Notes under the pieces: model-generated
The model's input: the letters and a program-made list of their open reading frames with translations, nothing else
The model's database searches: none
What the model was told of the DNA's origin: nothing
In this document: one piece after another, positions 10,683-42,060 of the stretch
Numbering within the stretch: position 1 is the first letter of the stretch
Layout of the letters: every line of letters begins with the position of its first letter
Position numbers and translations under genes: made by a program
Origin: Synechococcus sp.
GTDB lineage: Bacteria; Cyanobacteriota; Cyanobacteriia; Thermostichales; PCC-7336
Assembly: GCA_051439425.1 (NCBI GenBank)
Contig: JBFRWD010000074.1
Location: forward strand, 1 to 57,433
DNA: 57,433 nucleotides
Direction of reading: 5' to 3'

Positions 10683-10696
10683 GTATCGTGAACTAC
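10683..10696 (+). promoter_or_regulatory. NtcA box upstream of narB
   Basis: GTA-TCGTGAAC-TAC perfect consensus ending about 77 nt before the narB ATG. Confidence 0.7.
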
Positions 10697-10772
10697 ATCT
10701 ACTGAATGGGAAAACCACCTGCTTGTAAGCATTGTCCTTCGGGAGATTACAGCCAAAAAGGAGAGCGACTGC

Positions 10773-18785: not shown

Positions 18786-21700
18786 TTATGCCGTCGCAAT
18801 CGTCGATCGCGCCTGTTGACCCATGCCAATCAGGTACTTCACGGCTCCCAACACAGCTTTCTCGCAGTCATGGGGAGAACGTTCGTAAAATGCAGACCAC
18901 GCTTGGGCTCGCAAGCCTCCATCCAGGCGGTAGCGATGGGTATCGCTGGGGTGTTCGCCTAACCAAGCCAGCCGGACGGCATGACCGATTAATACGTCCA
19001 TTACCAAATAGTCGTTGAATCGCAGATTGGGATTGGCCTCGATCGCCTGCGAAATAGCCATCAGCGCTTCAACATTTAACTGGCGATATTCCGGTGCGCC
19101 AATTTTATTGAGGAGATGCTCTACAGCTAGAGCAAAGTTCTTCTCTCCGGGGGTCATCTCGGCCAAAATTGTGCGGCTGTCCAAGCGGTTGCGTCGCTCT
19201 AACTTGTCACCAATCGCCAAACCACGACAGTGCTGCATCGTCTGCCACACCCGCTCGTAAAAATCTGACGGTACCCGGTTAACGCTACCATCCAGCTTTC
19301 TCAGCCTGAGCCAGCCCCCCTCCGGTGTGGGGACTTCTGCATCTGGAACCTCGACATCCTGAAACTCAGGCGAGTCATCTTCAACGTGCAACGATTCTTG
19401 CTGCTCGACGGTGCGATCGAATTGGCTGTACGCCTCCAACACCTGACGTAATTTCGCCTTGATATCGAACGGACTCAATCCCATCAATCGCTCGTAGGCA
19501 TCCCCCTGTTCCAGCCCTTCTTCACCGGCAATTTCTCCAGAGATCAGCAGGATGAGATTGCTGACTCGAACAGTCATGAGATTGTCGAACAGTACGGGTT
19601 CGGAACGGATGAGCAGACTGAGGAAAATGACTATCTCTTGGGTGAGGACGTGCTCGCGGACATCCTCGCTACAGAATTTGAGAATTTTGCGGATGATTTG
19701 CTCTTGAGCCAGTGGCTTAACAATCGTGGATTCAGCCGAATACGCTTTGCCCACAGCAATAACTTTCTGACGAACTAAGATATCGGTCACTGCATCCGCC
19801 AGGCCAATATCCACCTTTTGCAACAAGCCCGCTGCCCGCCGCACCACCGACCACTCCTGCAAACCAATCGCCCGTCGGTAGACCTCATCGAGCAGATCGC
19901 GAACGGTGACATCCAATCCTTCATAGCGCCCCATGCTGGTGTCGTAGTCTAACCCCTGCAGACGATCTAGCGTGGCCAAGACTTCCACCTGCTCGTACAG
20001 ATTGCCGGATTGCCGCAACGTTTGTAGCAGCGAAATCATATCGGTCTCGCACTCCAACAACAGCTCGCGACTGTTATTGAGGGGACATGTAGCTGCAGGG
20101 TCAAACTTGAGATAGAACGGCATGGTCAGATCGCCTGCCACCATGCGGCGGGTGGGCTCGAAGCCATGCAGGTAATCAATGCGTTCGGTACTAGCGGTGC
20201 GCAGCAACTCGCGCAGTTTTCCGACTTTAACTGTCGTGCTACCACACTGACCGCCCTGAAATTCCCGCATAACATCCAACAACGCCGTGCTGCCAGAGTC
20301 CAGCATCGTTCGGGTAATCAATAACACCATGGTGGGGCGACCGGGCGATCGCCAGTGGGATTGTAGATAGGCCAGCTCGCTCCGAATCTGAGACACCAAA
20401 TAGTGGTAGTCGATGGTGAGATAAAACTGGGTGATATCCAGAAAAGACGGTAGAAACACCACCTGGCGATCGCGCAATTGATAAATGCGCGAGGTGGCCA
20501 AACTGCGCATCCGTTGGGCCGGACAGCCCGTCAGTTCTAGGCGATCGTTGCGCCCCACCTGAGCGTAGGCTGCGGTCAGCTGTTCTGCCGCACACACCTG
20601 AACCGGAGCAATCTCCGCCATTGTCTCCGTTTCAATTCCGTAGGCTTGCAGCTCCGCTTGTAGTTCGGCATTTTCCGCCATCAAAGCCACTTGGACCACC
20701 GGCACCGACTGCCGCCCCAAATTTCGCCGCCGCCCCAGCGGATCGATATCTTCTACGGTCAAGAGCCCCTCGGCTACCATCTCCCCCAAGTAGTACAGGC
20801 TTTGAGCCCATACCAGCGGTACGTTTGCATTGGGATAGCGTTGCTGGCTACCCGGCTTTGCCCGTTCTTCATTTAACGAGCCGGGGGGAACAACATACAG
20901 CTCGGGTAGTAACTGCTGGCCATCTCGGTTGACTAGCAGCGATCGCAGCTTTTCGCGATACGTGTCGGCTTGCTGGCGATCGCCCCGACACAATCCATCC
21001 AGCACCGAATAGGTGAAAAATAGCGGCCACTCGCATTCCACATGCTCGAACTGCTTCAACTCTGCGGGCTCGTAATGCAAGCGACTATTGTCTTCAATTG
21101 CGGTTTGATGACCATCCCGCAAAAATCGTTTGCAGCCGTATGGTCCTTCCAATTTGTCGCGAATCGTCTCGCGGGTGAGGGTGGCTAGATCGTCGTCTTC
21201 AATGGCATACGCCGGATACCCAATAATACTGAGCAAGGCTGCGTCTACTTCCTTAGAGCTGGACTCTCGGGGGAGCAACGATTCGAGGGTGACTCGCGCA
21301 CGAGCAATGTCGTGGGACATGACGTGTATCACCGACGCTTGCCCACCTTGCGTCCCGAATAAGTTGCAGCCGCCGATCGCCTCCAGCGCAGCTTTGGCCA
21401 TTCCCACCGAGCTTGCATTGAGTTCGGCAGTGCCGTGATTGATTTTGTTACCCCGCTCCCAAATACCGTAATCGGGGGTTTGATAGGCTTTGCTAATGTA
21501 AAACACCAAATTTTGGACAAAATTGACTTCGTCCAGCGTGAAGGTAATCCGCAGCCCTGATGCTGTCATCTGAGCCAACATCAATAGAAACAGGGAGGTA
21601 GCGTCTACCTGCAAGTGGCCCCACTCCGTATCCCCCACCACCACATCACCAGTGGCTGTGTCGTATTTGGCATGGAGGGCATCGAGGGGCGCTTGCGAAT

Positions 21701-22034
21701 GTTTAAACAGTTCTACTTTGTGGGCCTGACGCATCATCGATATCAGCAAGCCACGCATCAGTTTAACGACCCGCTGTTCCAGCTCGTAGGTTCGGCCGTC
21801 CCCATCATCCACTTTGCGATAGGCCAGGGCTAATCCCCACACCGCCAAAATGCTGTAGACGTTATCCCGCACCCAGGCATCGGTGTAATCGCCATGATCG
21901 TTGATTGCCGTACTAGCCGGGAGCAGGCCGGAAATAGGATGCTGGCGATCGAGGATGGTGCTGGAAACTCGATCGTAGTAATGGGCCAGTCGCGCTTGCT
22001 GCTGGGCCTGACGGGTGAGGAAGTGCTGAACCAA
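18786..22034 (-). CDS. Glycoside hydrolase family 15 / phosphorylase kinase alpha-beta subunit homolog
   Basis: AWVRDNVYS, WGHLQVDA, DYGIWERG, KRFLRDG, ECEWP and PELY motifs; 1082 aa. Confidence 0.9.
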   Translation of the reverse strand: MVQHFLTRQAQQQARLAHYYDRVSSTILDRQHPISGLLPASTAINDHGDYTDAWVRDNVYSILAVWGLALAYRKVDDGDGRTYELEQRVVKLMRGLLISMMRQAHKVELFKHSQAPLDALHAKYDTATGDVVVGDTEWGHLQVDATSLFLLMLAQMTASGLRITFTLDEVNFVQNLVFYISKAYQTPDYGIWERGNKINHGTAELNASSVGMAKAALEAIGGCNLFGTQGGQASVIHVMSHDIARARVTLESLLPRESSSKEVDAALLSIIGYPAYAIEDDDLATLTRETIRDKLEGPYGCKRFLRDGHQTAIEDNSRLHYEPAELKQFEHVECEWPLFFTYSVLDGLCRGDRQQADTYREKLRSLLVNRDGQQLLPELYVVPPGSLNEERAKPGSQQRYPNANVPLVWAQSLYYLGEMVAEGLLTVEDIDPLGRRRNLGRQSVPVVQVALMAENAELQAELQAYGIETETMAEIAPVQVCAAEQLTAAYAQVGRNDRLELTGCPAQRMRSLATSRIYQLRDRQVVFLPSFLDITQFYLTIDYHYLVSQIRSELAYLQSHWRSPGRPTMVLLITRTMLDSGSTALLDVMREFQGGQCGSTTVKVGKLRELLRTASTERIDYLHGFEPTRRMVAGDLTMPFYLKFDPAATCPLNNSRELLLECETDMISLLQTLRQSGNLYEQVEVLATLDRLQGLDYDTSMGRYEGLDVTVRDLLDEVYRRAIGLQEWSVVRRAAGLLQKVDIGLADAVTDILVRQKVIAVGKAYSAESTIVKPLAQEQIIRKILKFCSEDVREHVLTQEIVIFLSLLIRSEPVLFDNLMTVRVSNLILLISGEIAGEEGLEQGDAYERLMGLSPFDIKAKLRQVLEAYSQFDRTVEQQESLHVEDDSPEFQDVEVPDAEVPTPEGGWLRLRKLDGSVNRVPSDFYERVWQTMQHCRGLAIGDKLERRNRLDSRTILAEMTPGEKNFALAVEHLLNKIGAPEYRQLNVEALMAISQAIEANPNLRFNDYLVMDVLIGHAVRLAWLGEHPSDTHRYRLDGGLRAQAWSAFYERSPHDCEKAVLGAVKYLIGMGQQARSTIATA

Positions 22035-26997: not shown

Positions 26998-27101
26998 AAT
27001 GACGAATGACATATGACCAATGACGAAGGACCAATGACCCGATTCCGTCCTTAGTCCTTAGTCCTTAGTCCTTAGTCCTTAGTCCTTAGTCCTTAGTCCT
27101 T
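26998..27101. repeat. STRR arrays: degenerate (C/T)AATGAC units, then (GTCCTTA)x7 plus a partial unit
   Basis: Perfect heptamer tandem at 27047-27101; opposite-orientation degenerate units at 26998-27039. Confidence 0.92.
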
Positions 27102-27110
27102 CGTTCTCCA

Positions 27111-27755
27111 CTACAACTTATGAAAAACCACCGATAGATTATTTGCCGGCATCTCCACTGTCTTTAGCAAACTCAGCCCCTCCGCTGTCGCGGCTTTGAC
27201 AACGTCCTCCAGATGGCGAACTCCCCAGGCTGGATTCTGCGATCGCAAACTCAGGTCAAACGCGGCATTACTAGGAGCGGTATGCTGTCCGTTGCGCTGG
27301 TAGGGGCCGTAAAGATAGAGAACACCTCCTTCGGGCAAGATCCGCCCTGCACCAGCCAGCAACCCCAGACAGGCTGACCAGGGGGAGATGTGAATCATAT
27401 TTATGTTGACGATCGCAGAGATCGGGGTGGGCAACACCAGCGGCTCTAGTTCAGTGCCAGACAATTCAACTGGCCATCGATTCTGGCTGGCATCTAGCTC
27501 GATGGCTGGGTGAAGCATTGCAATGCCACTCCGCGCTCTCCAGGCGGCAATGCTGGCCCTAGCGATGGGATTGGGATCGGATGGAAGCCAGGTTAACTGA
27601 GGTAGGTGTCGGGAGAAATAGACAGCATGCTCTCCAGTGCCGCTGGCGACTTCCAGGACGGTGCCGCTGGCAGGCAGAATCTGTTGCAAGACCACGAGAA
27701 TAGGGTCTCGATTGCGCTGGGTGGCGGGAGCATATTTGCGATCGCCACTGGTCAT
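27111..27755 (-). CDS. DUF938 family SAM-dependent methyltransferase (METTL26-like)
   Basis: APATQRNRDPIL, LEVASGTGEH, NMIHISPW, YGPY and MPANN motifs. Confidence 0.9.
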   Translation of the reverse strand: MTSGDRKYAPATQRNRDPILVVLQQILPASGTVLEVASGTGEHAVYFSRHLPQLTWLPSDPNPIARASIAAWRARSGIAMLHPAIELDASQNRWPVELSGTELEPLVLPTPISAIVNINMIHISPWSACLGLLAGAGRILPEGGVLYLYGPYQRNGQHTAPSNAAFDLSLRSQNPAWGVRHLEDVVKAATAEGLSLLKTVEMPANNLSVVFHKL

Positions 27756-28663
27756 GACTGCATGTTTGCGACGGGGTGGGATTCCGATGTTGTAGTGGAA
27801 TCTCCTGCTTTCGGACAGGCTGCAGCTCTGGAATTGGCGATGTCACATTGGCCGACCAAACAGGGTTCGCTGAATGCCGGATCGTCTGCCGGTTGAGCAG
27901 CCTGTTGGCCGAACACCATCGTGCAGCTCATATCCTCAAAGTTGGGGGTCATGGTGAGGGGAATGCCAAATTCTTGAGTAAAGAAATCTTGGGTGGGCAG
28001 CTTGCACAAGTTGACGCAGGTACCCACACAGCGGCTTTGTTCTAGATAACGACACTTCTGGATCTGTACGCCACTGCTCTGCTGTCTCACGGTTCCGTCC
28101 GGCAAAGTAACCTCCACCTCGGTGACCTCGCAAGGTCCCACCAACCATTCGAACATTTGGGTGGCAAACCATGCATTCAGCTCGCACACCAATTGCGTGG
28201 GAGAAAAGAACGCCCGAATACCTTTCAGCGCAAAACTAGGCACCAGTGAGTTTAGGACTTGGGCTACCACCTGTCGTTGCTCGCGAGGCGATCGCCCCTG
28301 CACAATTTTCTGAGACAGATCCACAAATCCGTCGTAACCAGCCAACTCGGTTTGTTGACCGACGGCTGCCGCCATCTTGCGAGAAAACAGCCAAATAAAT
28401 AGCCGATCGATGGTGTTATCGGAATAGCAGGTGCCGCCATCATGGGCGAGCGCCATCGGGCTATCTGGTGTTTCAGAAACGCTGGCACTGCAGCTATCTG
28501 CGGACGAACCACAAGACGAAGTGCCCTCGGTCACACCATGGTTCTCATCTTGAGTTCTCTTGCCTTGAATCCTCTTGCCTTGAATATTCTTGCCTCGAAT
28601 ACTCTCGCTATTAGTCTGCTCGCCTCTATTGATATTGGTCATATTCAAATTCAAAGCCCTCAC
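27752..28663 (-). CDS. DUF4033 / DWARF27-like beta-carotene isomerase family protein
   Basis: FEWLVGP, KCRYLE-x3-C-x3-C-x3-CKLPTQDFF, and PNFEDMSC motifs; start uncertain (28663, 28642 or 28456). Confidence 0.85.
   Translation of the reverse strand: MRALNLNMTNINRGEQTNSESIRGKNIQGKRIQGKRTQDENHGVTEGTSSCGSSADSCSASVSETPDSPMALAHDGGTCYSDNTIDRLFIWLFSRKMAAAVGQQTELAGYDGFVDLSQKIVQGRSPREQRQVVAQVLNSLVPSFALKGIRAFFSPTQLVCELNAWFATQMFEWLVGPCEVTEVEVTLPDGTVRQQSSGVQIQKCRYLEQSRCVGTCVNLCKLPTQDFFTQEFGIPLTMTPNFEDMSCTMVFGQQAAQPADDPAFSEPCLVGQCDIANSRAAACPKAGDSTTTSESHPVANMQS
28557..28601. repeat. 15-bp tandem repeat x3
   Basis: CTCTTGCCTTGAATC / CTCTTGCCTTGAATA / TTCTTGCCTCGAATA. Confidence 0.8.
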
Positions 28664-29062
28664 GATCTGCGATCGCCCTACTCTCCCGAGCTACTGCACT
28701 ATTGTCCCCCCATTCAGCATGCCAATACTCTTGATTTTGTCAGGCAACAAGCCACTAACTGCGAGCAATCAACATAGCAGCGTGCTTACCGATAGATATG
28801 CGTCGATATGTTCATCACAAAACAGCAGGTTCAGATTGAACTAGCGCATTTTCGTAACAAAGTGTTAAAGTCGTCAGTGGCTTTGACATTTTTTACAGAG
28901 CCATTCGAGCACGCAGTTAAACTGAACCGTTAGTGCAGCCTTCGCTCATGGTGAGCCTGTTGGGTAGCTGTTGCGTTTGCGGTCGCAGGATTTCCGTTCT
29001 CGCACATCCACCGTCCAGCTCTGTCATTCACAGATTGCCCGGACAGCCACTACAGGACCCCC

Positions 29063-30784
29063 ATGACCCAAGCTACTGTGCCTCAGTTTGCCGAGTTTCC
29101 CCTGTCCGAACCTATTCTCCGGGCGATCGCTGATGTGGGCTACGAGTCCCCGTCCCCCATCCAAGCGCAAACCCTACCTCCTTTATTAGAAGGCCGTGAC
29201 CTAGTTGGTCAGGCTCAAACCGGTACTGGAAAAACTGCCGCATTTTCGCTACCGCTGCTCAGCAATCTCGACCTATCCCGCCGCGAACCTCAAATTCTGG
29301 TACTGGCCCCTACTCGCGAGCTGGCAATTCAGGTGGCAGACTCAATGCAATCGTACGGACGTCACCTGTCCGGCTTCAAAATAACCACTCTGTATGGTGG
29401 CATGAGCATTGGCCAGCAGATTCGCGATCTGCGCCACGGGGTCCACGTTGTTGTGGGTACCCCCGGACGCCTGCTCGATCACTTACGGCGCGGCACCCTA
29501 AAGTTGGACGGCCTATCCTCTGTGGTTCTTGACGAAGCTGATGAGATGCTACGCATGGGCTTTATTGACGATGTGGAAACTATCCTCAGCCAAGCCCCCG
29601 AAACCCGCCAGGTGGTATTGTTCTCGGCCACCATGCCCCTCGAAATTCGCAAGGTAGCCCGCAAGCACCTCACCGATCCAGTCGAAATCAAAATTGCCAC
29701 CGAGACGGCGACAGTTTCCAGCATTGCCCAGCGTTTTTGGATGGTACAGGGGATGCGCAAGCAGGATGCACTAATTCGCATTCTGGAAGCCGAAGAATTT
29801 GATGCTGCGATCATCTTTGCCCGCACGAAAACCATGACAGCGGAGGTCGCAGAGTTATTAGAGAATAGCGGTTACTCTAGCGCTGTCCTGAATGGCGATG
29901 TTAGCCAAGCGTTGCGAGAAAAGACGGTCGATCGCCTCAAGCGAGGCTCTATTGACATTGTTGTGGCCACCGATGTTGCTGCTCGCGGATTGGATGTCGA
30001 GCGCATTAGCCACGTCATTAATTACGACATTCCTCTCGATACCGAAACATACGTTCACCGCATTGGTCGTACCGGTCGAGCGGGACGCAAGGGTGACGCG
30101 ATCTTATTTGTTCATCGTCGCGAGCGTCGCTTGTTGCGCAACATCGAACGAGCGACTCGCCAGCAGATCGAGCCCATGCAGTTACCCAGCAATGTAGACA
30201 TTGCCGGACGTCGTATTGCTCAGTTTAAAGAGAAAGTTGCCGAAACAATCTCCAACCAAGAGGACATGGAGTTCTTTGAGGATTTGGTGAACAACCTGCA
30301 GGAAGAAAAGGAGTACACTCCCCTACAAATTGCTGCTGCACTAACCTACTTGGTACAAAAGGAGCGTCCCTTACGTCTTCCCAAAGAGCCCGAACCCAGA
30401 TTCCGCGACGACCGTGAGTCCCGCGAACGTCCCCAACGACGCGATCGCAATAATCGCAGCAATCGTTCGGAAGAGGGCATGGTCAGCTACCGGATTGAAG
30501 TGGGTCGCAATCATGGCGTCACCCCAAAGCACATCGTGGGCGCGATCGCTAACGAAGGAGGCATCAACAGCCGTCATATCGGTCGTATTCGCTTATTCAA
30601 CACCTTTAGCGTGGTTGACCTCCCAGATGGGATGCCGCCTGAAACCTTCGAGCACCTGAAGCAAGTCCAGATATGCGGGGAAGCCACCAACATCTCGATC
30701 GATGCAGGCCCCCGCAATGGTGGTGGTCCACGTCGCAATAGCTTCAGAGGGAACCCTCGCCCTCGTCGCGACAACCAGTTCTAA
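29063..30784 (+). CDS. deaD: DEAD-box RNA helicase DeaD/CsdA type with C-terminal DbpA RNA-binding domain
   Basis: AQTGTGKT, PTRELA, DEAD, SAT and HRIGRTGRAG motifs; YRIEVGR...IVGAIANE domain. Confidence 0.93.
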   Translation: MTQATVPQFAEFPLSEPILRAIADVGYESPSPIQAQTLPPLLEGRDLVGQAQTGTGKTAAFSLPLLSNLDLSRREPQILVLAPTRELAIQVADSMQSYGRHLSGFKITTLYGGMSIGQQIRDLRHGVHVVVGTPGRLLDHLRRGTLKLDGLSSVVLDEADEMLRMGFIDDVETILSQAPETRQVVLFSATMPLEIRKVARKHLTDPVEIKIATETATVSSIAQRFWMVQGMRKQDALIRILEAEEFDAAIIFARTKTMTAEVAELLENSGYSSAVLNGDVSQALREKTVDRLKRGSIDIVVATDVAARGLDVERISHVINYDIPLDTETYVHRIGRTGRAGRKGDAILFVHRRERRLLRNIERATRQQIEPMQLPSNVDIAGRRIAQFKEKVAETISNQEDMEFFEDLVNNLQEEKEYTPLQIAAALTYLVQKERPLRLPKEPEPRFRDDRESRERPQRRDRNNRSNRSEEGMVSYRIEVGRNHGVTPKHIVGAIANEGGINSRHIGRIRLFNTFSVVDLPDGMPPETFEHLKQVQICGEATNISIDAGPRNGGGPRRNSFRGNPRPRRDNQF

Positions 30785-30832
30785 TTTCGATGGGATTGGT
30801 TTTGCGTCGGGATTGATTTTCGTCGGGATTGG
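30785..30832 (+). repeat. Three imperfect ~16-bp direct repeats right after the deaD stop
   Basis: TTTCGATGGGATTGG / TTTTGCGTCGGGATTGA / TTTTCGTCGGGATTGG. Confidence 0.7.
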
Positions 30833-31290
30833 TTCTAACGACAGCCTTTTATCCGCAGTGGAGTAACATCTGCTGCGGATTGATTGTACGTGCAAAATTC
30901 TATGCACATGCCAGTGTGCGCACGGGCCTTGCGATCGCACCCCCAAGAGAGAGAGCGATCCCGCTGGCTATCTGAGCGCGAGCCAGATTGATATTGGCGA
31001 ATGACTTAGCCTCTTCAAACCAGCAATAGACATCAAACTGTAACGAATTCGAGGGACTTCCGTTTGCTTTTTATTGCTAATTCCTAAGAATCCCTTGCAT
31101 CACTTTTATACTAGTCAATAGATAAAAGCGCGAAGGAGGGCATTATTTTGACGCGCTTTCTTGCCGATTTCTACTAAAGGCTAATCGACCAAAGGTGTGA
31201 GTTATACGAGATGTCTGCTTGCAACACCTGTTTAGACAATCGCAAGCCATAAGGTTGTGAGAGGGAGAACGCGCAGTTCTTCAAAGCATT

Positions 31291-33360
31291 ATGAATATTC
31301 ACCGAACAGTTATCCCTCCAGACAGGGGGGGGACAGTTTATCCAGGCCGAACATTGCCGTCATTACTGGATGAAGCCTGCGAATTGCGGCCCAATCAACA
31401 TGCTTTGAATCAGTATATTGATCGGCAATGGCAGGGGATTTCCCTTCAAGAATTGCGCGTGTCTGCCGATGGATTTGCCCTAGGACTGTTGAGCTTGGGA
31501 CTCAAGAAAGGCGATCGCGTTGCACTATTTATGACTAGCGATAGTCAGTTTGCGATCGCCGATATGGGATGTGTATCTGCCGGCTTGGTGGACGTCCCCA
31601 TCGAGCTGTCTGAAGCTCCGTCTGCGATCGCCTATATCCTCAATCATTCACAAGCCAAAGCACTGATTGTTTCGACGTGGGACTTGCTGCAACAGATCGC
31701 AGAACAAATCTCCACCAGCAGCGATCTGACTGCGATTGTGGTAGCCGAGCAACAGCCTTGTCCCTCTACATTCCAATCTCCCAAGCCAGAGTTTCAGTAT
31801 TTTGCGCTCTCTGAGATAACGGCACGCGGCACTGCCCGGTTTTCGGTCGGGAAGCGCATGCAACTGCGATCGCGGCTCGACCCCGATGACCTGGCCACGA
31901 TTATTTACGTCATTGGCAGCACCGAACATGTCAGCGATGCACCGTTAGAAGACTGGCCCTGTTCACCCAGCACTATCCAACGCAATACCATCCAGCAACA
32001 ATTGTGGGAGCGCAGTCCAAAACGAGGCCCGACATGCGACGTTCCCAGAGGGGTCGCACTGAGTCATGCCAACATCACCTCCAGCACGCTGTCGGCTCTC
32101 TCCAGTCACCCCGATCTAATTCTGGGTCAGCCGGAAGTCGCTTTATCGTTCTTACCTCTGACCCATATTTTTGCTCGGGCCTTCCTATACGGACATCTCT
32201 TTTACGGCCATACCGTCTATTTCTCTACGCCAGAGCGAGTGAACCGCCATCTCAAAGACGTACAACCCACCATTTTTCTCACCGTTCCCCGATTGTTAGA
32301 GAAAGCATACGAGCAGATTCTGAAAACGGGCACTCAGCTAAGAGGATGGCGACGATGGGCCTATAGTTGGGCACTCAAATTAGCCGATCGCTACGAAATC
32401 GGACAAGTTCCACGAGGCTGGTATGCCGTAGAACTGTGGCTGGCAAGTTTGGCAGTCTTTTCCCAATGGCGGCAGGCGTTTGGAGGGCAGGTGAAGTTTC
32501 TGGTGTGTGGTGGTGCGGCCCTGAGCGCCGATCTTGCCAATTTTTTCACGGCAGCCGGAATTCCCGTACTACAGGGCTACGGCCTGACGGAAACCAGCTC
32601 GGTGGTCTGCTATAACCGCGATCGCTGGAACCGTGCCGGAACAGTGGGATTGCCAATTCCAGGGGTGGAGTTGGCGATCGCCGATGACGGCGAAATTCTG
32701 GTGCGCGCCCCTTACGTCATGCAGGGGTACTACAAAGACGAAGCAGCCACGCAAGCCGTTATCGATACCGACGGTTGGTTCCACACGGGGGATATGGGGG
32801 AACTAACGGGTGATGGCTTCCTCCAGATTGTTGGCTACAAGAAAAATCTGTTCAAGCTCTCCACTGGAAAGTACGTCTCTCCTCAACCGCTGGAACGCTA
32901 TCTGATGCATTCTCGCTTGGTGGAACGGGCGATCGCGATTGGGGCCCGCCGCAAGTTCTGCTCGTTGGCAATTTTTCCCAATGCCGAAGCACTGCGAGAG
33001 TGGGCCGACCGGGAGGGACTGGACGAACCACTGGAAGACTTGCTGACTCATCCACACGTGTTGAAGCTTTATCAATCACTGGTGGATGAAGCCAATGAGT
33101 GCATGCCCTATTGGTCCCGGGCCAAGCGGTTCCAACTGATCGATCCGGAACTGGCCCTGCATTGCGACATCACTCGGGTTGAGCGCCGGGTGGAGTGTTC
33201 GGAAAACGTCGAAGGGCTGAACGTCGAAGGGTTTAGCGCTGCGATTGAGGCCATGTATTCCAGGCCACTGCGCAACGGGATGCTGGCGATCGCGGGGCCG
33301 CTGACGGCTTTAGCCTATCGGGCTGGTCAGCTCTACGCCAGCTTGCCGATTCACACTTAA
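31291..33360 (+). CDS. fadD: Long-chain acyl-CoA synthetase-like AMP-binding protein with degenerate motifs
   Basis: LSFLPLTHIF, VPRLLEK, GYGLTETS and FHTGD present; P-loop altered and interrupted by an insertion. Confidence 0.8.
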   Translation: MNIHRTVIPPDRGGTVYPGRTLPSLLDEACELRPNQHALNQYIDRQWQGISLQELRVSADGFALGLLSLGLKKGDRVALFMTSDSQFAIADMGCVSAGLVDVPIELSEAPSAIAYILNHSQAKALIVSTWDLLQQIAEQISTSSDLTAIVVAEQQPCPSTFQSPKPEFQYFALSEITARGTARFSVGKRMQLRSRLDPDDLATIIYVIGSTEHVSDAPLEDWPCSPSTIQRNTIQQQLWERSPKRGPTCDVPRGVALSHANITSSTLSALSSHPDLILGQPEVALSFLPLTHIFARAFLYGHLFYGHTVYFSTPERVNRHLKDVQPTIFLTVPRLLEKAYEQILKTGTQLRGWRRWAYSWALKLADRYEIGQVPRGWYAVELWLASLAVFSQWRQAFGGQVKFLVCGGAALSADLANFFTAAGIPVLQGYGLTETSSVVCYNRDRWNRAGTVGLPIPGVELAIADDGEILVRAPYVMQGYYKDEAATQAVIDTDGWFHTGDMGELTGDGFLQIVGYKKNLFKLSTGKYVSPQPLERYLMHSRLVERAIAIGARRKFCSLAIFPNAEALREWADREGLDEPLEDLLTHPHVLKLYQSLVDEANECMPYWSRAKRFQLIDPELALHCDITRVERRVECSENVEGLNVEGFSAAIEAMYSRPLRNGMLAIAGPLTALAYRAGQLYASLPIHT

Positions 33361-33488
33361 GCTCTCAAGTTTTAGAGCTGTCAACGTCCAGAGTTTTCCG
33401 GTTGCAACGTTTCCCAGTTCCAGAGTTTCTAACTTCAGGCGTATTCAGTACATAAGTTTTTCCAGTCACAATCCGGGAGGGTACCGAC

Positions 33489-35867
33489 ATGATGCGAGCA
33501 TTCCGAACAGCTGCCGTCTTGGGTGCAGGAGTGATGGGCACTCAGATCGCCGCCCACCTAGCCAATGCCGGACTGACCGTTTACCTACTGGATTTGCCTG
33601 CCAAGAACGGCTCTAAAAATTCGCTGGTGAATGCAGCGCTGAAGAAAGCATCCCGACACAAGCCATCCGTGTTCTTCACGGAAGGAACCGTGCGACGGAT
33701 TGTGGCTGGGAATTTTGACGATGATTGGCATCGGCTAGACAACGTGGACTGGGTAATTGAAGCCGTTGTGGAAGATTTGGCCATCAAGCAGCAGCTGATG
33801 GAGAAGCTTGAAGCCGTGGTGGGCGATCGCACGATCGTTTCCACCAACACGAGTGGTTTACCCATTCACACCATTACGGAAGGGCGCTCTCTTGATTTCC
33901 GCCGTCGGTTCTTGGGCACGCATTTCTTCAATCCCCCCCGCTATCTCAAACTATTGGAACTGATTCCCACCGACGACACCGATCCGGCCGTGCTCGATCG
34001 CATGAAGTGGTTTGGTCGGATGCACTTGGGTAAAGGGGTGGTAGTGGCCAAAGATACCCCGAACTTTATCGCCAACCGCGTGGGCATGTTTGCCACCCTA
34101 TTGGGCCTGAGATGGTGGTTGGAGGAAGGCTACACCATCGAAGAAATCGATCGCCTCACCGGTACGCTGGTGGGCCGGCCCAAATCTGCCACTTTCCGGA
34201 CCGCCGACCTGGTGGGATTGGATACGCTGCTGTACGTGATCGAGCATCTATACGACGCCATTCCCCATGACGAGAACCGGGAGGTGTTCCAGGCTCCGGA
34301 TATTCTGCAGGAGCTGGTGAGCACGGGGACGCTGGGGGCCAAAACCAATCAAGGCTTCTATAAGAAAGCGGACGGGACAATTTTGTCCCTCAACCCCGAG
34401 ACCTGGACCTACGAACTGCCCCAACCGATGAATTTGGGCTACTTGGAGGATATGGGTGGAATGCGACTGGGCGATCGTCTGCGAGCTCTCTATCGCGAAC
34501 CCGGACGGGCTGGGGACTTTTTCCGCCAAACCACCCTAGAGATCCTTGCCTATGCTGCCAACCGCATTCCCGAGATCGCCGAACTTCCGGTAGCGATCGA
34601 TCGGGCCTTGCAATGGGGATTTGGCTGGCAGATGGGGCCGTTTCAAATCTGGGACGAACTGGGATTCGAAGCCGTGCTGGAGGATATGCAGGCGGCCGGG
34701 CTGACAGTACCCGAATGGATCGAGCAAATGTACGAGGAGGGCTACCAGCACTTCTATACCCATCGCGAGGGCGAGGACGTTGAATCGCGATTGCTGCAGG
34801 GATACGACCCCAGCATGGGTGGATGCGGATATACCGATGTGGAGCCGCATGCCGACGAGATCGAACTGGACGATCTGAAGCACGACCCTCAGCGGACGGT
34901 GTGGCACAACCCAGAAGCCGCCCTACTGGACTTGGGGGATGGTGTGTTGCTGTACGAGTTTCGCTCGAAAGGCAATACCCTCAGCAACGACGTGCTAGCG
35001 GGATTGGAGGCCAGCCTCGATTTACTGGAAACCAAAGATTATCTCGGCTTGGTGATTGGCAATGGCGGGCAAAACTTCTCTGCTGGAGCCAATCTCAAAG
35101 AAATGGCCTATGCCGCGCAGGAGGGAGGAGCGGCAGCGATCTCAGGACTGATTCGGCAGTTTCAAGCTCTGATGCAGCGGATTCATTATTTCCCCAAACC
35201 GATTGTGGCTGCCGTGCAGGGTCGAGCATTGGGAGGGGGATGTGAATTGGTGCTGGCGTGCCCTCACGCGGTAGCAGCGGCTGAAACCTATATCGGTTTG
35301 GTGGAGTTGAGTGTTGGCTTGGTTCCGGCTGGCGGTGGCCTATTGCGAATGGTATCCCGCGCCGTCGATCGCGCTCCGTCCGCAACCCCCAGTCACATTC
35401 AACCTTGGCTACAAAAAGCCTTTGAAACCATCGCCACAGCGACTGTTTCCAATAGCGCAACAGAGGCGATTGAACTGGGCTTTTTGCCCGCCGACACGGT
35501 GGCGGTGATGAATGGAGATCGCCGTCTCTACGTGGCCAAACAAGAGGTAATTCGCCTGGCCAACGAAGGTTACAGCCCTCCCCCAGACAACCACAACCTC
35601 TGGCTGATGGGCAGCTCCGCCCGCGCCCTCATGGAACACGCGGCATTCACCATGCATGAGGCCGGTTTCGCCTCTGACTACGATCGCCATTTAGCCGGCC
35701 AGTTGGCCTACGCCATGACCGGCGGCGAGCTGAACGCCCCCACTCTGGTGGAGGAACAGTACCTGCTGGATCTGGAGCGGGAGGCATTTGTTCCGTTGCT
35801 GGCAGAACCCAAAACGCAGGAACGGATGGCGTATTTGTTGAAGCACAAGAAACCGTTGAGGAATTGA
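33489..35867 (+). CDS. fadN: 3-hydroxyacyl-CoA dehydrogenase / enoyl-CoA hydratase (FadN type)
   Basis: GAGVMG Rossmann fold, STNTS, HFFNP, FIANR; C-terminal crotonase motifs FSAGANL, GGGCE and GLVPAGGG; ends KPLRN; GGAGG RBS. Confidence 0.92.
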   Translation: MMRAFRTAAVLGAGVMGTQIAAHLANAGLTVYLLDLPAKNGSKNSLVNAALKKASRHKPSVFFTEGTVRRIVAGNFDDDWHRLDNVDWVIEAVVEDLAIKQQLMEKLEAVVGDRTIVSTNTSGLPIHTITEGRSLDFRRRFLGTHFFNPPRYLKLLELIPTDDTDPAVLDRMKWFGRMHLGKGVVVAKDTPNFIANRVGMFATLLGLRWWLEEGYTIEEIDRLTGTLVGRPKSATFRTADLVGLDTLLYVIEHLYDAIPHDENREVFQAPDILQELVSTGTLGAKTNQGFYKKADGTILSLNPETWTYELPQPMNLGYLEDMGGMRLGDRLRALYREPGRAGDFFRQTTLEILAYAANRIPEIAELPVAIDRALQWGFGWQMGPFQIWDELGFEAVLEDMQAAGLTVPEWIEQMYEEGYQHFYTHREGEDVESRLLQGYDPSMGGCGYTDVEPHADEIELDDLKHDPQRTVWHNPEAALLDLGDGVLLYEFRSKGNTLSNDVLAGLEASLDLLETKDYLGLVIGNGGQNFSAGANLKEMAYAAQEGGAAAISGLIRQFQALMQRIHYFPKPIVAAVQGRALGGGCELVLACPHAVAAAETYIGLVELSVGLVPAGGGLLRMVSRAVDRAPSATPSHIQPWLQKAFETIATATVSNSATEAIELGFLPADTVAVMNGDRRLYVAKQEVIRLANEGYSPPPDNHNLWLMGSSARALMEHAAFTMHEAGFASDYDRHLAGQLAYAMTGGELNAPTLVEEQYLLDLEREAFVPLLAEPKTQERMAYLLKHKKPLRN

Positions 35868-35869
35868 GA

Positions 35870-35953
35870 TTCGTCATTGGTCCTTGGTCATTTGTCCTTA
35901 GTGAAGAGTGGCCCAACCAATAGACTAATGACCAATGACTAATGACCAGTGAC
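35870..35953. repeat. Inverted STRR heptamer arrays between fadN and fadA
   Basis: TTGGTCA/TTGGTCC units followed by TGACCAA/TGACTAA units. Confidence 0.8.
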
Positions 35954-36006
35954 TCCTACCCCGTAAGCCATACCCCTCCTCACCCATTCACTTTCGGAGG
36001 CCCACC

Positions 36007-37188
36007 ATGAATACCGTCTACATCGTTAGCTCTGTTCGTACTGCCGTCGGTAAAGCACCTCGCGGCTCCCTGCGCTCGATGCGACCGGATGAGATGGGGG
36101 GCGCAGTGGTGAAGGACGCGATCGATCGCGTTCCGGGGTTGGAGCCTGAGGATATTGAAGATTCCATCTTTGGCTGTGCCTTTCCGGAAGGAGAGCAGGG
36201 GATGAATTTGGGGCACGTGGTGGCTCACGTGGCTGGGCTGCCGGATTCCGTTCCGGGCTATACGGTCAGTCGCTGTTGTGCATCTGGATTACAGGCGATC
36301 GCGCTAGCGTCTCAAACGATTGAGGTGGGGCAGGCGGATGCGATTGTGGCAGGGGGAGCAGAGTCTATGAGCCTGATGCCTCCGGGTGGGAACTACGTGG
36401 CACCGAACCCCGGTCTGATGGGGGATTGGCCGCAAGCATACATGACGATGGGGTTGACGGCGGAGCGATTGGCGCAGGAGTTTCGCATCTCTCGGGAGGA
36501 GCAGGATGAATTTGCTCTGCGATCGCACCATCGCGCGTTGGCTGCGATCCGAGCCGGTCGCTTCACACCGGAGATCGCGCCCCTGTCGATTTACACCACG
36601 ACTTACCGAGACGGTCATCTCCATTCGCTAGCCTCCCGCTTCGATACCGATGAAGGCCCGCGTCCCGACACCACGTTGCCAGCACTGGCCAAGCTGAAGC
36701 CCGTGTTTAGTGCCAAAGGGACGGTGACAGCTGGAAATTCGTCGCAAACGTCGGATGGTGCAGCTGCATCTGTGGTGATGAGCAAGGGAATGTGCGATCG
36801 CCTCGGCATTCAGCCGATGGCTCGGTTGCTGGGCTATGCCGTTGCTGGGGTACCGCCAGAGATGATGGGGATTGGCCCGATTGAAGCGGTTCCCAAAGTG
36901 TTGCAGCAGGTGGGATTGCGAATGCGGGACATTGGGCTGATCGAACTGAACGAAGCGTTTGCCGTTCAGGCGTTAGCCGTAATTCGCAAACTGGGTTTGG
37001 ATGCTGGCATTGTCAATGTCAACGGCGGGGCGATCGCCCTCGGCCACCCGCTAGGCTGCACCGGAGCAAAGCTGACAGCAACGTTGCTGCACGAGATGAA
37101 GCGGCGCGGGATTCACTACGGTCTCTGCACGATGTGCATTGGCGGCGGCATGGGAGCTGCAGGGGTGTTTGAGAATTTGATGCGTTGA
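36007..37188 (+). CDS. fadA: Acetyl-CoA C-acyltransferase (3-ketoacyl-CoA thiolase)
   Basis: CASG, NEAF, GGAIALGHPLG and CIGGGMG catalytic motifs; GGAGG RBS. Confidence 0.95.
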   Translation: MNTVYIVSSVRTAVGKAPRGSLRSMRPDEMGGAVVKDAIDRVPGLEPEDIEDSIFGCAFPEGEQGMNLGHVVAHVAGLPDSVPGYTVSRCCASGLQAIALASQTIEVGQADAIVAGGAESMSLMPPGGNYVAPNPGLMGDWPQAYMTMGLTAERLAQEFRISREEQDEFALRSHHRALAAIRAGRFTPEIAPLSIYTTTYRDGHLHSLASRFDTDEGPRPDTTLPALAKLKPVFSAKGTVTAGNSSQTSDGAAASVVMSKGMCDRLGIQPMARLLGYAVAGVPPEMMGIGPIEAVPKVLQQVGLRMRDIGLIELNEAFAVQALAVIRKLGLDAGIVNVNGGAIALGHPLGCTGAKLTATLLHEMKRRGIHYGLCTMCIGGGMGAAGVFENLMR

Positions 37189-37238
37189 AGCTTGATGGTT
37201 TGAAGCTAGCAGGTTGCTGGCAGATTTCGGAGGTCGTG

Positions 37239-39722
37239 ATGATGGTGTTTCTTCAATCCCCTATTGTCGTTGTTCCCATTGGGTTGCTGCTGTTGCTTTT
37301 GCTGGGTTACTGGGCAGCACCCATGTGGGCTTGGTTTGGTTTGGTTGCAATTGGACTGTTAGCCATTCAAAGTCCGGTTTGGATTTGGGCAATCTTTGCC
37401 GCCATTGCTCTGGTCTTCAATATCCCAAAATTTCGAAGAGCCGCGATTACATCAGCCATTGTCAAAGGAATTACGGCGCTGAAGTTGCTGCCATCGATTT
37501 CGGAGACGGAGCGAGCGGCGATCGAGGCCGGCAACGTGTGGGTGGAAGGGGAGTTCTTCACGGGTAAGCCCGACCTGAAGCAAGCGATGGACGAGCCCCA
37601 TCCGGAATTGACCGAGGCTGAGCAAGCGTTTCTGGATAACCAAGTGGAAACCGCTTGCTCGATGACTAGCGACTGGGAAATTTACCAGCTCCAGGATTTG
37701 CCCGCTGATGTGTGGGCGTTTCTGAAGCAAGAGCGCTTCTTGGGCATGATGATTCCTCAGGAATATGGCGGATTGGGGTTTTCCAATGCGGCCTACAGTG
37801 CGGTGATGACCAAACTGGCATCAAGATCGTTCACCTACGTGGCAACGGTGGGGGTGGCCAATTCCTTAGGGCCTGCAAAACTACTGCTCCATTACGGAAC
37901 CCCAGAACAGAAGCAGCATTACCTACCGCGATTGGCGCGAGGAGAGGAGATTCCCTGCTTTGCTCTCACGGAGCCCACTGCCGGTTCCGATGCTGCCAGC
38001 ATGACCTCTAACGGGGTGGTGTTTGAGGGAGACGATGGGGAGCTGTACGTTCGCCTCAATTGGAAGAAGCGCTACATCACGCTGGGGGCGATCGCCACAC
38101 TCTTGGGTCTGGCCTTCCAGCTTGAAGATCCGTATAACCTGCTGGGCAAAGGTACCCGTGTCGGCATTACCTGCGCTCTGATTCCCACCGATAATCCTGG
38201 TGTGACCGTCAACCAACGGCACGATCCGATGGGAGTACCGTTTTACAACTCCCCCACCGAAGGCCATGACGTTGTCGTGCCCGTATCCCAAATCATTGGT
38301 GGCGTGGAGCAGGCGGGTCAGGGGTGGAAGATGCTGATGCAGTCGCTGGCGGCAGGGCGCGGGATTAGCTTCCCGGCTACCTGTTCTGGCGTCGCCAAGT
38401 TGGTGTCGCGGGTGACGGGAGCTTATGCCACAGTGCGCAAGCAGTTTGGGTTGTCTATCGGCAGGTTTGAGGGGATTGAAGAACCGCTGGCTCGCATTGC
38501 CGGACTGACCTACATCGTGGATGCAACGCGCCTGTATACCTGTGGAGCGGTCGATCGCGGCGAGCAACCGGCAGTAGTGTCGGCCATTGCTAAATACGCA
38601 ACGACCGAGCTGTCCCGCCAAATCATTAACGATGGCATGGATGTGATGGGCGGGGCGGGCATCTGTCGCGGGCCGCGCAATTTGCTGGCCAACATCTACA
38701 CGGCGACACCGATTTCCATCACGGTGGAGGGGGCAAATATCCTGACGAGATCGATGATGATTTTCGGTCAGGGGGCGATTCGCAGCCATCCTTACGTATT
38801 AAAAGAAATTGAGGCACTAGAAAACTCCGACCTGGCTGGTTTCGATCGCCTGTTGTGGGCGCATATGGGGTCGGCGACCAGTAACTCTATTCGCGCTATC
38901 TGGCTGCATCTCACCCGAGCCCGATTGCTGCGCAGTCCCGTACAAGGGCCGACTGCTCGGTACTATCAAAAACTGGCTTGGGCGTCAGCTGCGTTTGCTT
39001 CTATGACCGATCTGGTGTTGGTCAACTTGGGGGGCAGCTTGAAGCGACGGGAGAAGCTGGCCGGTCGGTTTGCGGATGTGTTGACCTGGATGTATTTGGC
39101 CACCGCTACGCTGCGTCGGTACGAAGCTGAAGGACGACAAGCGGAGGATCTGCCGCTCGTGCAGTGGGCGTTGGATTACGCATTCGCTCGCATTCAGGCG
39201 GCATTTGAAGGGATTGCCAGTAACTTATCGGATGCTGGGATGGGATTGCTGGGTGGATGGCAGTTGAGCTGGTGGCGGTTGAGTCCGATTGGAACCATGC
39301 CTAGCGATCGCCTCGGTCACGCTGTGGCTCGGTTGCTGCAAACTCCGGGTAGTCACCGCGATCGGTTGACGGACGGTATTTATCTGCCTGCTGATGTGAA
39401 GGAATCGTTGGGTCGTTTGGAACGAGCGTTTGCATTGGCAGTGCAAGCGGAGCCTGTCTTGAAACGTATCAAGCAGGCCAGTCGTGCCGGTCAGTTACCC
39501 AAAGGGCGTCCAGCCCAGTTGATTGCGGAAGCGGCAGTGCGCGGCATTATTTCTGCGGACGAGGCAGAATTGCTCACTGCAGCAGAAAAAGCTCGGTATG
39601 ACGCGGTGCAGGTGGATGCATTCGATTTGGAGGAGTATCGATCGCTGGCTGGATATCGCTCGTTAGAGGGAAAAGCATCTCAGCCGATCGCCGGTGCGTC
39701 TCCTGTGAGCGTGGGGGGCTAA
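37239..39722 (+). CDS. fadE: Acyl-CoA dehydrogenase, large membrane-anchored FadE type with DUF1974-like C-terminus
   Basis: N-terminal TM segments, ISETER, CFALTEP-GSDA, R-QFG and ITVEGANIL (catalytic Glu); GGAGG at 37229 supports ATG 37239 or 37242. Confidence 0.93.
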   Translation: MMVFLQSPIVVVPIGLLLLLLLGYWAAPMWAWFGLVAIGLLAIQSPVWIWAIFAAIALVFNIPKFRRAAITSAIVKGITALKLLPSISETERAAIEAGNVWVEGEFFTGKPDLKQAMDEPHPELTEAEQAFLDNQVETACSMTSDWEIYQLQDLPADVWAFLKQERFLGMMIPQEYGGLGFSNAAYSAVMTKLASRSFTYVATVGVANSLGPAKLLLHYGTPEQKQHYLPRLARGEEIPCFALTEPTAGSDAASMTSNGVVFEGDDGELYVRLNWKKRYITLGAIATLLGLAFQLEDPYNLLGKGTRVGITCALIPTDNPGVTVNQRHDPMGVPFYNSPTEGHDVVVPVSQIIGGVEQAGQGWKMLMQSLAAGRGISFPATCSGVAKLVSRVTGAYATVRKQFGLSIGRFEGIEEPLARIAGLTYIVDATRLYTCGAVDRGEQPAVVSAIAKYATTELSRQIINDGMDVMGGAGICRGPRNLLANIYTATPISITVEGANILTRSMMIFGQGAIRSHPYVLKEIEALENSDLAGFDRLLWAHMGSATSNSIRAIWLHLTRARLLRSPVQGPTARYYQKLAWASAAFASMTDLVLVNLGGSLKRREKLAGRFADVLTWMYLATATLRRYEAEGRQAEDLPLVQWALDYAFARIQAAFEGIASNLSDAGMGLLGGWQLSWWRLSPIGTMPSDRLGHAVARLLQTPGSHRDRLTDGIYLPADVKESLGRLERAFALAVQAEPVLKRIKQASRAGQLPKGRPAQLIAEAAVRGIISADEAELLTAAEKARYDAVQVDAFDLEEYRSLAGYRSLEGKASQPIAGASPVSVGG

Positions 39723-40618
39723 TGATGTCGCAAGCAGTTGTGGAACGGGAGGGATTTTTTACGGGAGCGGATGGGTTTCAGTTGTTCACTCGCACCTGGT
39801 TACCCAAGTCCGACCCCAGGGCAGTCTTGCTGTTAGTGCATGGGTTGGGTAGTCATAGCGGCTCGTTTTCTTATTTGGCCGAGATGTTGGTGGGCTATGG
39901 CTATGCTCTGTATGGTTTGGATTTGCGGGGGCACGGGCGATCGCAGGGGCAGCGGGGATTTATCCGCACCTGGGAAGATTACCGCTCGGATTTGCGATCG
40001 TTTCAGGAATGGGTCGATCGCCAGGCGGCCAACTGCACGCGATTTCTAGTCGGGCACAGTTTGGGGGCGGTGGTGGTGTTGGATTTTGTCATGCGGATGC
40101 AGCCGTCGTTGGCGGGGGCGATCGCGATGGCTCCGGCGTTAGGGACTGCAGGGGTGCCGCCGGTGAAGTTGGCAGTGGGGCAGTTGCTATCTAGTATTTG
40201 GCCTCGATTTGCTCTCGATACTGGGATTGACCCGTTCAAGGGGGCCCGCGATCCGCAGTTGTTGGAGGAGTTTTTAAACGATCCGTTGCGGCATTCGAAA
40301 GGAACGGCTCGGTTGGCAACGGAGTTTTTTGACACGGTGGACTGGATTCAAGCGAATCCCGATCGCCTGCAGGTGCCGTTGTTAATTTTGCATGGGGAAT
40401 CGGATGCGATCGCGTTGCCGGAGAGTAGTGCGGAGTTTATCGAACAGCTTCAGCATCCGGATACCAGTCGGTTGGCCTATCCCCAGTGCTATCACGACAT
40501 TCACCGGGATTTGAGTTGCGATTCGGTGGTGGAGGATTTGGTGGATTGGTTGGATTGGCATTCGGAAGATGATTGCTGTCAGTTGGGCCTGCCTCCGGTT
40601 CAGGAAATTGCGGCATAG
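39722..40618 (+). CDS. Alpha/beta hydrolase, lysophospholipase/monoacylglycerol lipase family
   Basis: VHGLGSH, DLRGHG, GHSLG nucleophile elbow, HGESD and YHD; start overlaps the fadE stop (TAATG). Confidence 0.9.
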   Translation: MMSQAVVEREGFFTGADGFQLFTRTWLPKSDPRAVLLLVHGLGSHSGSFSYLAEMLVGYGYALYGLDLRGHGRSQGQRGFIRTWEDYRSDLRSFQEWVDRQAANCTRFLVGHSLGAVVVLDFVMRMQPSLAGAIAMAPALGTAGVPPVKLAVGQLLSSIWPRFALDTGIDPFKGARDPQLLEEFLNDPLRHSKGTARLATEFFDTVDWIQANPDRLQVPLLILHGESDAIALPESSAEFIEQLQHPDTSRLAYPQCYHDIHRDLSCDSVVEDLVDWLDWHSEDDCCQLGLPPVQEIAA

Positions 40619-40673: not shown

Positions 40674-40737
40674 AAAGCCAGTGAAAAAGAGGTGAGAGCA
40701 AAGGGCAAAAAGGCAAAAGAGCAAAGGGAAGAAGAAT

Positions 40738-42060
40738 TCACGCGGGGGAACAGGCGACACGGAACCCGTAGAAGCGGTACCGATAGCCGGGAAAGTCCCA
40801 GCTGCGGCAGGCAGACCGGCAGTCCTGCGGGCCGTAGTCCCACGAACCACCACGCAACACCCTATAGTTTTTATCTCCTCCTTTTATCCAGGGGGTTCCC
40901 CCTGGGGGCGCGCCCTCGTAATTTGCATGCCAGTGGTCGGCACACCACTCCCAGACATTGCCGTGCATGCCATACAGCCCAAAGGCATTGGCTTTAAAGG
41001 TGCCAACAGGTGTTGTTTGTTCGCGATACTCCCCTTTCGACCCCTTCCCGTAAATGTAGTTGCCGTTGTAATTGGCCAAATCTGTAGAAATCGTCGGTCC
41101 AAACGAAAAGGGGGTGACTGTTCTTGCTCGGCAAGCATATTCCCATTCCGCTTCGCTGGGCAATCGATAATCTTTACCAGTCTGTTGCGACAGGCGATCG
41201 CAAAATTCAACCGCTTCGAACCAAGAAATTTGTTCCACTGGGCGATCTAGACCGAAAAAATGCGAAGGCTGTGGTGTAAGTTCCTCCTTCACTTTCGGGA
41301 GAGCTGCTACCTCCATCCACTGCGCTTGAGTGACCGGATATTTGCCCATCCAAAAGGGTTGAAGATTGACTCGATGCTGAGGACCTTCTACATCAACGAG
41401 TGATTCATCGAACTCCTCATACCAATCTCGGCCTTCTTCACGCTCGGGCGATCCCATCCAAAATCCGCCTCCTGGAATTGCGATCATCTCCAGCGCTACG
41501 CCGTTTCCCAGGGGCTCTGAGAAATTCTCAAGACCGCTTGACTTCGGAGGTGAAGCGTTACTTTTGCTAGGGGGAGTTTGAAGAGGTGGCGGTGCAGAGG
41601 ATGGCTGTTCGAGCAGATCTTCGACAGTATTGGTTAACTGAACCCAGATTTTATCTTGCTCAAAAGTGGGCAACCCCAACAAAGGTTGGGAGGGAGAATT
41701 CACCGCTTGGAATTTTTTTAACGGACTTCTTTTGAACCGACAATGTCCCAAAATGACCGGCAATACGTCCAAACCTTCACGAGCTTGAGCCAGCAATATT
41801 GGCGGTAATTCGTCGTCATGAATAAAATCAGATGCCAAAAAGTCAGCACTCACCAATAAGATGGCTACCCGCGCTTCATCCAAAGCCCGATCGATCTCCG
41901 CTTTCCAGTCCTGACCGGCCCGTATTTTGGTGTCATCCCAGCGTTCTACAATTCCATCACGCTCCAGTGGCTTCAAATGAACCTGTAATCGTTCGAGTGC
42001 TGAGGAATCACGATGGCTGTAGCTGATAAATACTTTGGTGCGTTTGGTATTGCTTGCCAT
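40738..42060 (-). CDS. TIR domain + FGE-sulfatase (SUMF1/CLec) domain protein
   Basis: N-terminal VFISYSH...WDD...EL TIR motifs; C-terminal FWMGS, YPVTQ, RLPSEAEWEYACRA, GNVWEW and RGGSW...GFRV motifs. Confidence 0.92.
   Translation of the reverse strand: MASNTKRTKVFISYSHRDSSALERLQVHLKPLERDGIVERWDDTKIRAGQDWKAEIDRALDEARVAILLVSADFLASDFIHDDELPPILLAQAREGLDVLPVILGHCRFKRSPLKKFQAVNSPSQPLLGLPTFEQDKIWVQLTNTVEDLLEQPSSAPPPLQTPPSKSNASPPKSSGLENFSEPLGNGVALEMIAIPGGGFWMGSPEREEGRDWYEEFDESLVDVEGPQHRVNLQPFWMGKYPVTQAQWMEVAALPKVKEELTPQPSHFFGLDRPVEQISWFEAVEFCDRLSQQTGKDYRLPSEAEWEYACRARTVTPFSFGPTISTDLANYNGNYIYGKGSKGEYREQTTPVGTFKANAFGLYGMHGNVWEWCADHWHANYEGAPPGGTPWIKGGDKNYRVLRGGSWDYGPQDCRSACRSWDFPGYRYRFYGFRVACSPA

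Follow-up and report, generated by a model that had tools for sequence, protein, structure and literature searches.

The window analysed here is the whole of contig C74 (57,433 bases) of a Synechococcus sp. genome, G000, a cyanobacterial assembly that is 96% complete and distributed over 182 contigs. It carries a putative fatty-acid beta-oxidation (fad) operon at positions 31291-40618, where five co-oriented open reading frames lie on the forward strand (Table 1). The fadE reading frame opens at 37185 (845 aa), yet translation probably starts at the ATG at 37239, as this codon stands behind a GGAGG; its stop overlaps the lipase start as TAATG, which couples the lipase translationally to fadE. 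FadN, FadA, FadE and the lipase are each encoded by a single-copy gene in G000, and FadA is the sole thiolase match in the genome (tblastn, one match). The heptamer arrays in the fadN-fadA gap, which resemble short tandemly repeated repetitive (STRR) sequences, have a folding energy of -37.8 kcal/mol (computed with no shuffle control), and similar heptamer pairs occur 26 times in G000.

Table 1. Features of the fad operon in the window
Feature	Positions	Strand	Remarks
FadD' (long-chain acyl-CoA ligase homologue, 689 aa)	31291..33360	+	PF00501; without P-loop, A8 Arg and A10 Lys
FadN (3-hydroxyacyl-CoA dehydrogenase + enoyl-CoA hydratase, 792 aa)	33489..35867	+	Pfam 3HCDH_N, 3HCDH, ECH_1
Two inverted heptamer arrays, STRR-like	35869..35953	.	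hairpin between fadN and fadA
FadA thiolase (393 aa)	36007..37188	+	TIGR01930 over cut-off
FadE, long acyl-CoA dehydrogenase of E. coli architecture	37239..39722	+	NF007000, NF009586, PF09317 (ACDH_C)
Monoacylglycerol-lipase-like alpha/beta hydrolase (298 aa)	39722..40618	+	PF12146 (Hydrolase_4)

The families of the five genes, the TAATG coupling and the intact catalytic motifs of FadN, FadA, FadE and the lipase had been described in a first-pass annotation of this DNA, and our analysis agrees with it on all of these. The catalytic residues are present in FadN (H145, E586 and E606), FadA (C91, H347 and C377) and FadE (E515, in the numbering of the 845-aa frame), and the corresponding patterns are retained in 40-50 of 50 copies. 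FadE scores above the NCBIfam cut-offs of NF007000 and NF009586 and below that of FadE_coli, and its N-terminus is hydrophobic by hydropathy. In the lipase, the GHSxG nucleophile, the Asp-His pair and the HG oxyanion motif were all found; the triad (S113, D228, H258) is invariant in 27/27 aligned sequences and the best PDB matches are monoacylglycerol lipases (E 2e-39). Judged by its sequences, the cluster thus covers the whole beta-oxidation cycle, with an acyl-CoA dehydrogenase, a hydratase/dehydrogenase and a thiolase that each have their catalytic residues.

What the cluster does not contain is a catalytically complete acyl-CoA ligase. The product of the first gene (FadD') had been described as a FadD-like ligase, and the point missed was that it is a protein without the ATP-using motifs; its nearest named homologue is from Synechococcus sp. 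PCC 7336 (62%). Fifty-two cyanobacterial loci were fetched (12 from FadN matches and 40 of the 85 FadE matches given below), and 49 operon copies of FadD' (the window and 48 loci, the split L092 being excluded) were aligned with 18 orthologues from Rhodothermia, the class of Rubrivirga litoralis. The P-loop Ser and the A8 Arg are found in 0/49 cyanobacterial copies each and the A10 Lys in 2/49, against 18/18, 18/18 and 17/18 in Rhodothermia. The P-loop of FadD' carries an insertion of ~38 residues, and its positions vary freely among the copies, with acidic residues and insertions among the variants; in the window protein, three of the five residues that are invariant in the superfamily are changed (G473A, Arg to Y516, and no A10 Lys). 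At the same time, the A4 His, A5 GYGLT, A7 TGD and A8 Gly are each kept in 49/49 copies, as are Y430, T433, D501, G526, Y528 and H292; the fully conserved residues include the adenine-stacking Tyr, the phosphate-binding Thr, the ribose-binding Asp and the CoA-tunnel A8 Gly. Among the 120 best homologues, A4, A5, A7 and a KK..FKL..GKY motif are nearly invariant, while 117 have neither the P-loop consensus nor the A8 Arg. The Rhodothermia FadD has 205 invariant positions; of these, 86 are retained by 90% or more of the cyanobacterial copies and another 21 are lost, with 10 of the lost positions in the P-loop, at the A8 Asp-Arg or in A10 (Fisher p ~1e-8, for positions picked after the alignment and sites that are not independent).

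Decay into a pseudogene was rejected, since the dN/dS of fadD' against the same-genus genome G003 is 0.084, like that of the other operon genes (0.03-0.11); in the comparison with G001, also of the same genus, dS was saturated. The degenerate copies form one clade (support 96), so the motifs were lost once. The AlphaFold model (predicted local distance difference test score 86.6) has the two-domain ANL fold and all of its Foldseek matches are ANL enzymes; it lies nearer to structures in the thioester state (root-mean-square deviation ~5 versus ~10), to which we give little weight. The P-loop and the A10 Lys serve adenylation, whereas the A8 Gly, a residue on the wall of the CoA tunnel, is needed for thioester formation only (PMC6122825); the CoA pocket adjoins A8 (PMC8460268). 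In a preprint on FATP2, mutation of the P-loop Thr, the K-loop Lys and one Arg, taken by us to be equivalent to the A8 Arg, abolished activity. FadD' therefore very probably no longer adenylates, as far as its residues tell, and it appears to retain a selected job at the entry of the pathway, the motif loss being selective and under purifying selection. A precedent for split half-reactions is the pair PtmA1/PtmA2 (PMC6594144), in which an ANL-fold protein apparently performs one half-reaction only, as proposed for FadD', and the FadD' sequence pattern fits a PtmA2-like non-adenylating acyl-CoA ligase. However, that pair belongs to secondary metabolism and has a dedicated partner, and PtmA2 is not among the listed Foldseek matches of FadD'. 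In the 52 fetched loci no second AMP-binding gene was found that could be a dedicated adenylating partner.

Elsewhere in G000 there are two intact genes of the acyl-acyl carrier protein (acyl-ACP) synthetase (Aas) type, located at C141:21535-23478 and C78:23376-25322 and 48% identical to each other, besides an acetyl-CoA synthetase, a FAAL and MenE. Aas belongs to the same superfamily as FadD' with only 28% identity; Aas-type genes are separate and intact and occur in 60/61 genomes, and Aas is able to make acyl-CoA as a side activity. The second Aas copy was considered as a dedicated activator for the operon and rejected as genus-specific: two copies are found in 4/4 genomes of the genus but, among 57 further genomes searched, in just 1, and the six other FadN-positive genomes of the set have one copy each.

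The absence of electron-transfer flavoprotein (ETF) and FadL, at first noted for the window alone, extends further. ETF, ETF-QO and FadL were not found anywhere in G000, and ETF was found in 0/39 operon-bearing cyanobacteria (controls positive). The long FadE with an extra C-terminal domain resembles that of E. coli (49% identity), and ETF-free electron transfer by enzymes of this long type has been speculated and not proven (PMC9329746); the E. coli system differs in that the window has a dehydrogenase-first FadN unlike FadB, no FadL, and its genes in one operon. Isocitrate lyase and malate synthase were not found in G000, and a search of 36 operon genomes for isocitrate lyase gave two clear matches and one partial one.

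The operon is widespread but patchy in cyanobacteria and not a rarity. FadN was identified in 10/61 relatives and in 9/401 genomes sampled from the phylum, three of the latter being distant matches in other classes, whereas the long FadE was identified in 85/401 genomes sampled from the class (50/167 genera), with a frequency by family from 0/46 in one to 21/46 in another. The two samples differ in make-up, so the prevalence is lineage-dependent; related genomes are, moreover, not independent. The order fadD-fadN-fadA-fadE is kept in 49/52 fetched loci; of the remaining three, one runs into a contig edge, and in the other two (L091 and L095, from a pair of congeneric genomes) fadE stands apart and fadN is located elsewhere in the genome. 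The lipase lies within 36/52 loci, downstream in the genus of the window and mostly upstream elsewhere, and is fused to FadD' in 3/52; it is present in 8/10 FadN-positive and 1/51 FadN-negative genomes. Both the supposed rarity at the level of the strain and a strain-specific novelty are set aside by these counts, and a Chlorogloeopsis copy has been named and found induced (PMC6424891). Ten of the 52 loci (L113, L115 and L117 among them) have, close to the operon, a further and longer alpha/beta-hydrolase-like gene, which in three loci is fused to the lipase. An Oscillatoriales assembly carries a lone fadN (L016:7980-10361) that branches as the sister of all the remaining cyanobacterial copies; a FadD' match was not found in that genome. 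On a plasmid of Acaryochloris marina S15, a ribbon-helix-helix gene (46 aa, L195:2796-2936) is divergent from fadD'; as an operon regulator it was rejected, being present in only 6/52 cyanobacterial loci and absent from G000. No shared motif was found across 47 upstream regions, and a promoter scan gave a result below chance level.

The same four genes recur outside the phylum. In the class Rhodothermia, FadN is present in 94/101 genomes and fadD, fadN, fadA and long fadE stand in this order in 16 of the 20 loci with the best scores, with the same protein types and 40-66% identity per protein. The Rhodothermia block differs in its intact FadD, in the absence of a lipase homologue from those loci, and in the presence of ETF in 3/5 tested operon-bearing genomes (it is absent from the other two). 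Quick gene trees were computed, with Shimodaira-Hasegawa-like approximate likelihood ratio support only, few outgroups and a thin sampling of other phyla. In these per-gene trees, which the annotation had proposed, cyanobacterial FadN, FadE and FadA form single clades (98, 100 and 100, respectively) beside Rhodothermia, and proteobacterial FadE, including that of E. coli, falls outside the clade of both. The suggestion that a Bacillus/Bacteroidetes-type FadN and an E. coli-type FadE make the operon a mosaic did not survive: the four-gene order shared with Rhodothermia and the trees joining both groups point to one unit, and the window FadE is closer to Rhodothermia (56-61%) than to E. coli. 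As Acaryochloris plasmids carry the long FadE, the block can move. The operon, a block in common with Rhodothermia, may have been acquired by cyanobacteria a single time and been patchily retained since. Among the intact FadD homologues, P0138 and P0161 have long N-terminal additions which resemble, by eye, a TetR-type regulator and a patatin-type domain.

Related genes have been met in expression studies. In Chlorogloeopsis fritschii PCC 9212, UYEDRAFT_05556-05553 were named fadD, fadN, fadA and fadE and rose together 8.6-11.4-fold in far-red light, which was read as beta-oxidation (PMC6424891). Their likeness to the operon is known from the four names and the consecutive locus tags; the FadD homologue in another assembly of C. 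fritschii (P0074) has the same degenerate motifs as FadD'. The retrieved passages of that report hold no biochemistry, survey or mention of missing motifs. Fatty-acid degradation genes are also up in PCC 6912, in a study that equated the induced fadD with aas (PMC10830646), and full beta-oxidation capacity was noted in a Phormidium assembly (PMC8002359). On the other side, most of 129 KEGG genomes were reported to be without fadE, fadN and fadA (PMC8252387), and according to a review, beta-oxidation gene sets had not been reported from any cyanobacterium (PMC10114076). No operon survey and no mention of a degenerate FadD was found in the literature covered, from which most subscription journals are excluded. 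The beta-oxidation gene set itself is thus already partly known, and the conserved disabled FadD' is the new aspect of the operon.

We consider it moderately probable that the locus is a lipid-scavenging beta-oxidation operon for energy, with acyl activation by Aas and FadD' at the entry. The lipase would free fatty acids from lysolipids or monoacylglycerols, the Aas-type enzymes of the cell would carry out the ATP step of activation, and FadD' would finish or relay the acyl transfer to CoA, or act as a binding scaffold. FadE, FadN and FadA, to judge from their intact catalytic residues, would then shorten the acyl-CoA to acetyl-CoA and NADH, FadE presumably handing its electrons to the membrane quinone pool with no ETF. 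As there is no glyoxylate shunt, the gain would be energy and recyclable acetyl-CoA under light limitation, and not growth on fat. The lipase-to-acetyl-CoA pathway proposed from the first reading keeps its full set of cycle enzymes; as a self-contained route it is unsupported, because FadD' probably cannot do the ATP-dependent step. Within the scavenging reading, the most likely role of FadD' is acyl transfer to CoA through the second half-reaction alone, a role to which we assign somewhat less than even chances; otherwise it may bind or channel the acyl substrate.

Several observations weigh against this reading. The A5 Glu of FadD' is present in 27/49 copies only (Gln in 22/49), and the idea of a second half-reaction is weakened by the loss of the A8 Arg, since this residue in 4-chlorobenzoate:CoA ligase has a stabilising effect on the thioester-forming state as well. 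A gene is split in 5 of the 49 complete loci. The direction of transfer differs by tree: FadE gives two sister clades and FadA nests the cyanobacteria within Rhodothermia, with three outgroups only, and the intact FadD proteins P0032, P0087 and P0093 are closer to cyanobacterial FadD' than those of Rhodothermia are. The presence of an intact FadD in cyanobacteria was considered and rejected, the best match to P0032 among 401 genomes, with three candidates scored per genome, being 56%. The induction in PCC 6912 was interpreted as recycling and not degradation (PMC10830646), the literature covered yielded neither an enzyme assay nor a label-shortening experiment for any strain with the operon, and the RNA run X7 contained relatives ~88-92% alike only and nothing from this strain.

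Among the alternatives, the one that survives best, possible though clearly less probable, is that FadD' is non-catalytic and binds fatty acid, AMP or acyl-CoA as a scaffold, carrier or sensor while Aas makes acyl-CoA directly. It is consistent with the altered superfamily-invariant residues, with the lipase-FadD' fusions and with the side activity of Aas, but the complete conservation of the AMP-phosphate, ribose and pantetheine-tunnel residues goes beyond an obvious scaffold need. It is rather improbable that the cycle enzymes act on special acyls (limited trimming, oxidised or branched chains, phytol-derived acids) instead of bulk membrane fatty acids: the lack of FadL, ETF and a glyoxylate shunt, the disabled ligase and the patchy distribution would suit such substrates, yet the enzymes are orthologous to the general fad block of heterotrophs, a monoacylglycerol-lipase-like partner travels with them and no biosynthetic genes are conserved nearby. 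More doubtful still is an ordinary, self-contained fad operon in which FadD' remains an ATP-dependent ligase through substitute residues. Database names do say ligase, the modelled ANL fold is intact and an invariant KK..FK lysine cluster lies near the active site; however, the intact Rhodothermia enzymes have this cluster too and still need the other motifs, the P-loop positions are under no visible constraint, and in other ANL enzymes a single substitution at an equivalent site is crippling. An assembly chimera or contaminant DNA, for which the fragmentation of G000 could speak, has next to no probability in view of the HIP1-rich operon, a bridging contig and the occurrence of the operon in single-contig cyanobacterial genomes (e.g., G002, G051, G584 and G599).

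The operon is native to this cyanobacterium and long resident, as the annotation had held. It contains 18 highly iterated palindrome (HIP1) sites in 9.3 kb, where the base composition predicts 0.2 and the genome median is 8 per window of the same size (0.86/kb genome-wide); ~1% of 418 windows of G000 reach 18, and eight Rhodothermia loci (18-20 kb each) have 0-6. A 7,278-base contig of the possible source run spans 27084-34361, from the left flank into fadN, with 0 differences, and a sequencing run of a separate study covers most of the operon. The flank check suggested earlier thus succeeded on the left; for the right flank (40676-41135) there is no bridging contig among those listed, and synteny with G003 covers it. 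The same-genus genomes G001 and G003 share the flanking genes, including deaD upstream, and each of the four gene trees places the window copy with others of its genus.

Next to the operon, on the reverse strand, lies a gene for a TIR + FGE-sulfatase protein (40738-42060) with several paralogues in G000, within which a source-run contig differs from the window at 40767-40879. A reverse-transcriptase motif, presumably of the diversity-generating-retroelement type, lies among three FGE genes at C146:12598-13317 in G000; no adenine-biased template match to the 3' end of the window gene was found. The window also holds a nitrite reductase, an MFS transporter and a molybdopterin oxidoreductase in a row (6872-13007), an ordinary nitrate assimilation cluster, and a 1082-aa protein with Glyco_hydro_15 and phosphorylase-kinase C-terminal domains (18786-22034, reverse strand).

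A bolder form of the scavenging reading, which we put forward tentatively, makes FadD' an ATP-independent ACP-to-CoA gate that would catalyse the thioester half-reaction only, either accepting acyl-AMP from Aas or exchanging acyl groups from acyl-ACP to CoA via enzyme-bound acyl-AMP, with FadE feeding plastoquinone directly. If this is true, fat burning would switch on as AMP rises, and a variant of beta-oxidation without a true FadD or ETF would operate in about one-fifth of the cyanobacteria sampled. Fatty-acid labelling and biofuel strategies lean on the assumed absence of cyanobacterial beta-oxidation (PMC8252387), and the question becomes directly testable in cultured strains, as many filamentous lineages and a number of unicellular ones have a complete, inducible set. 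The lack of ETF offers a clean system for how a long FadE passes on its electrons, and the conserved disabled ligase, with its intact orthologue as a natural control, points to an undescribed handover of fatty acids to CoA in cells that use ACP.

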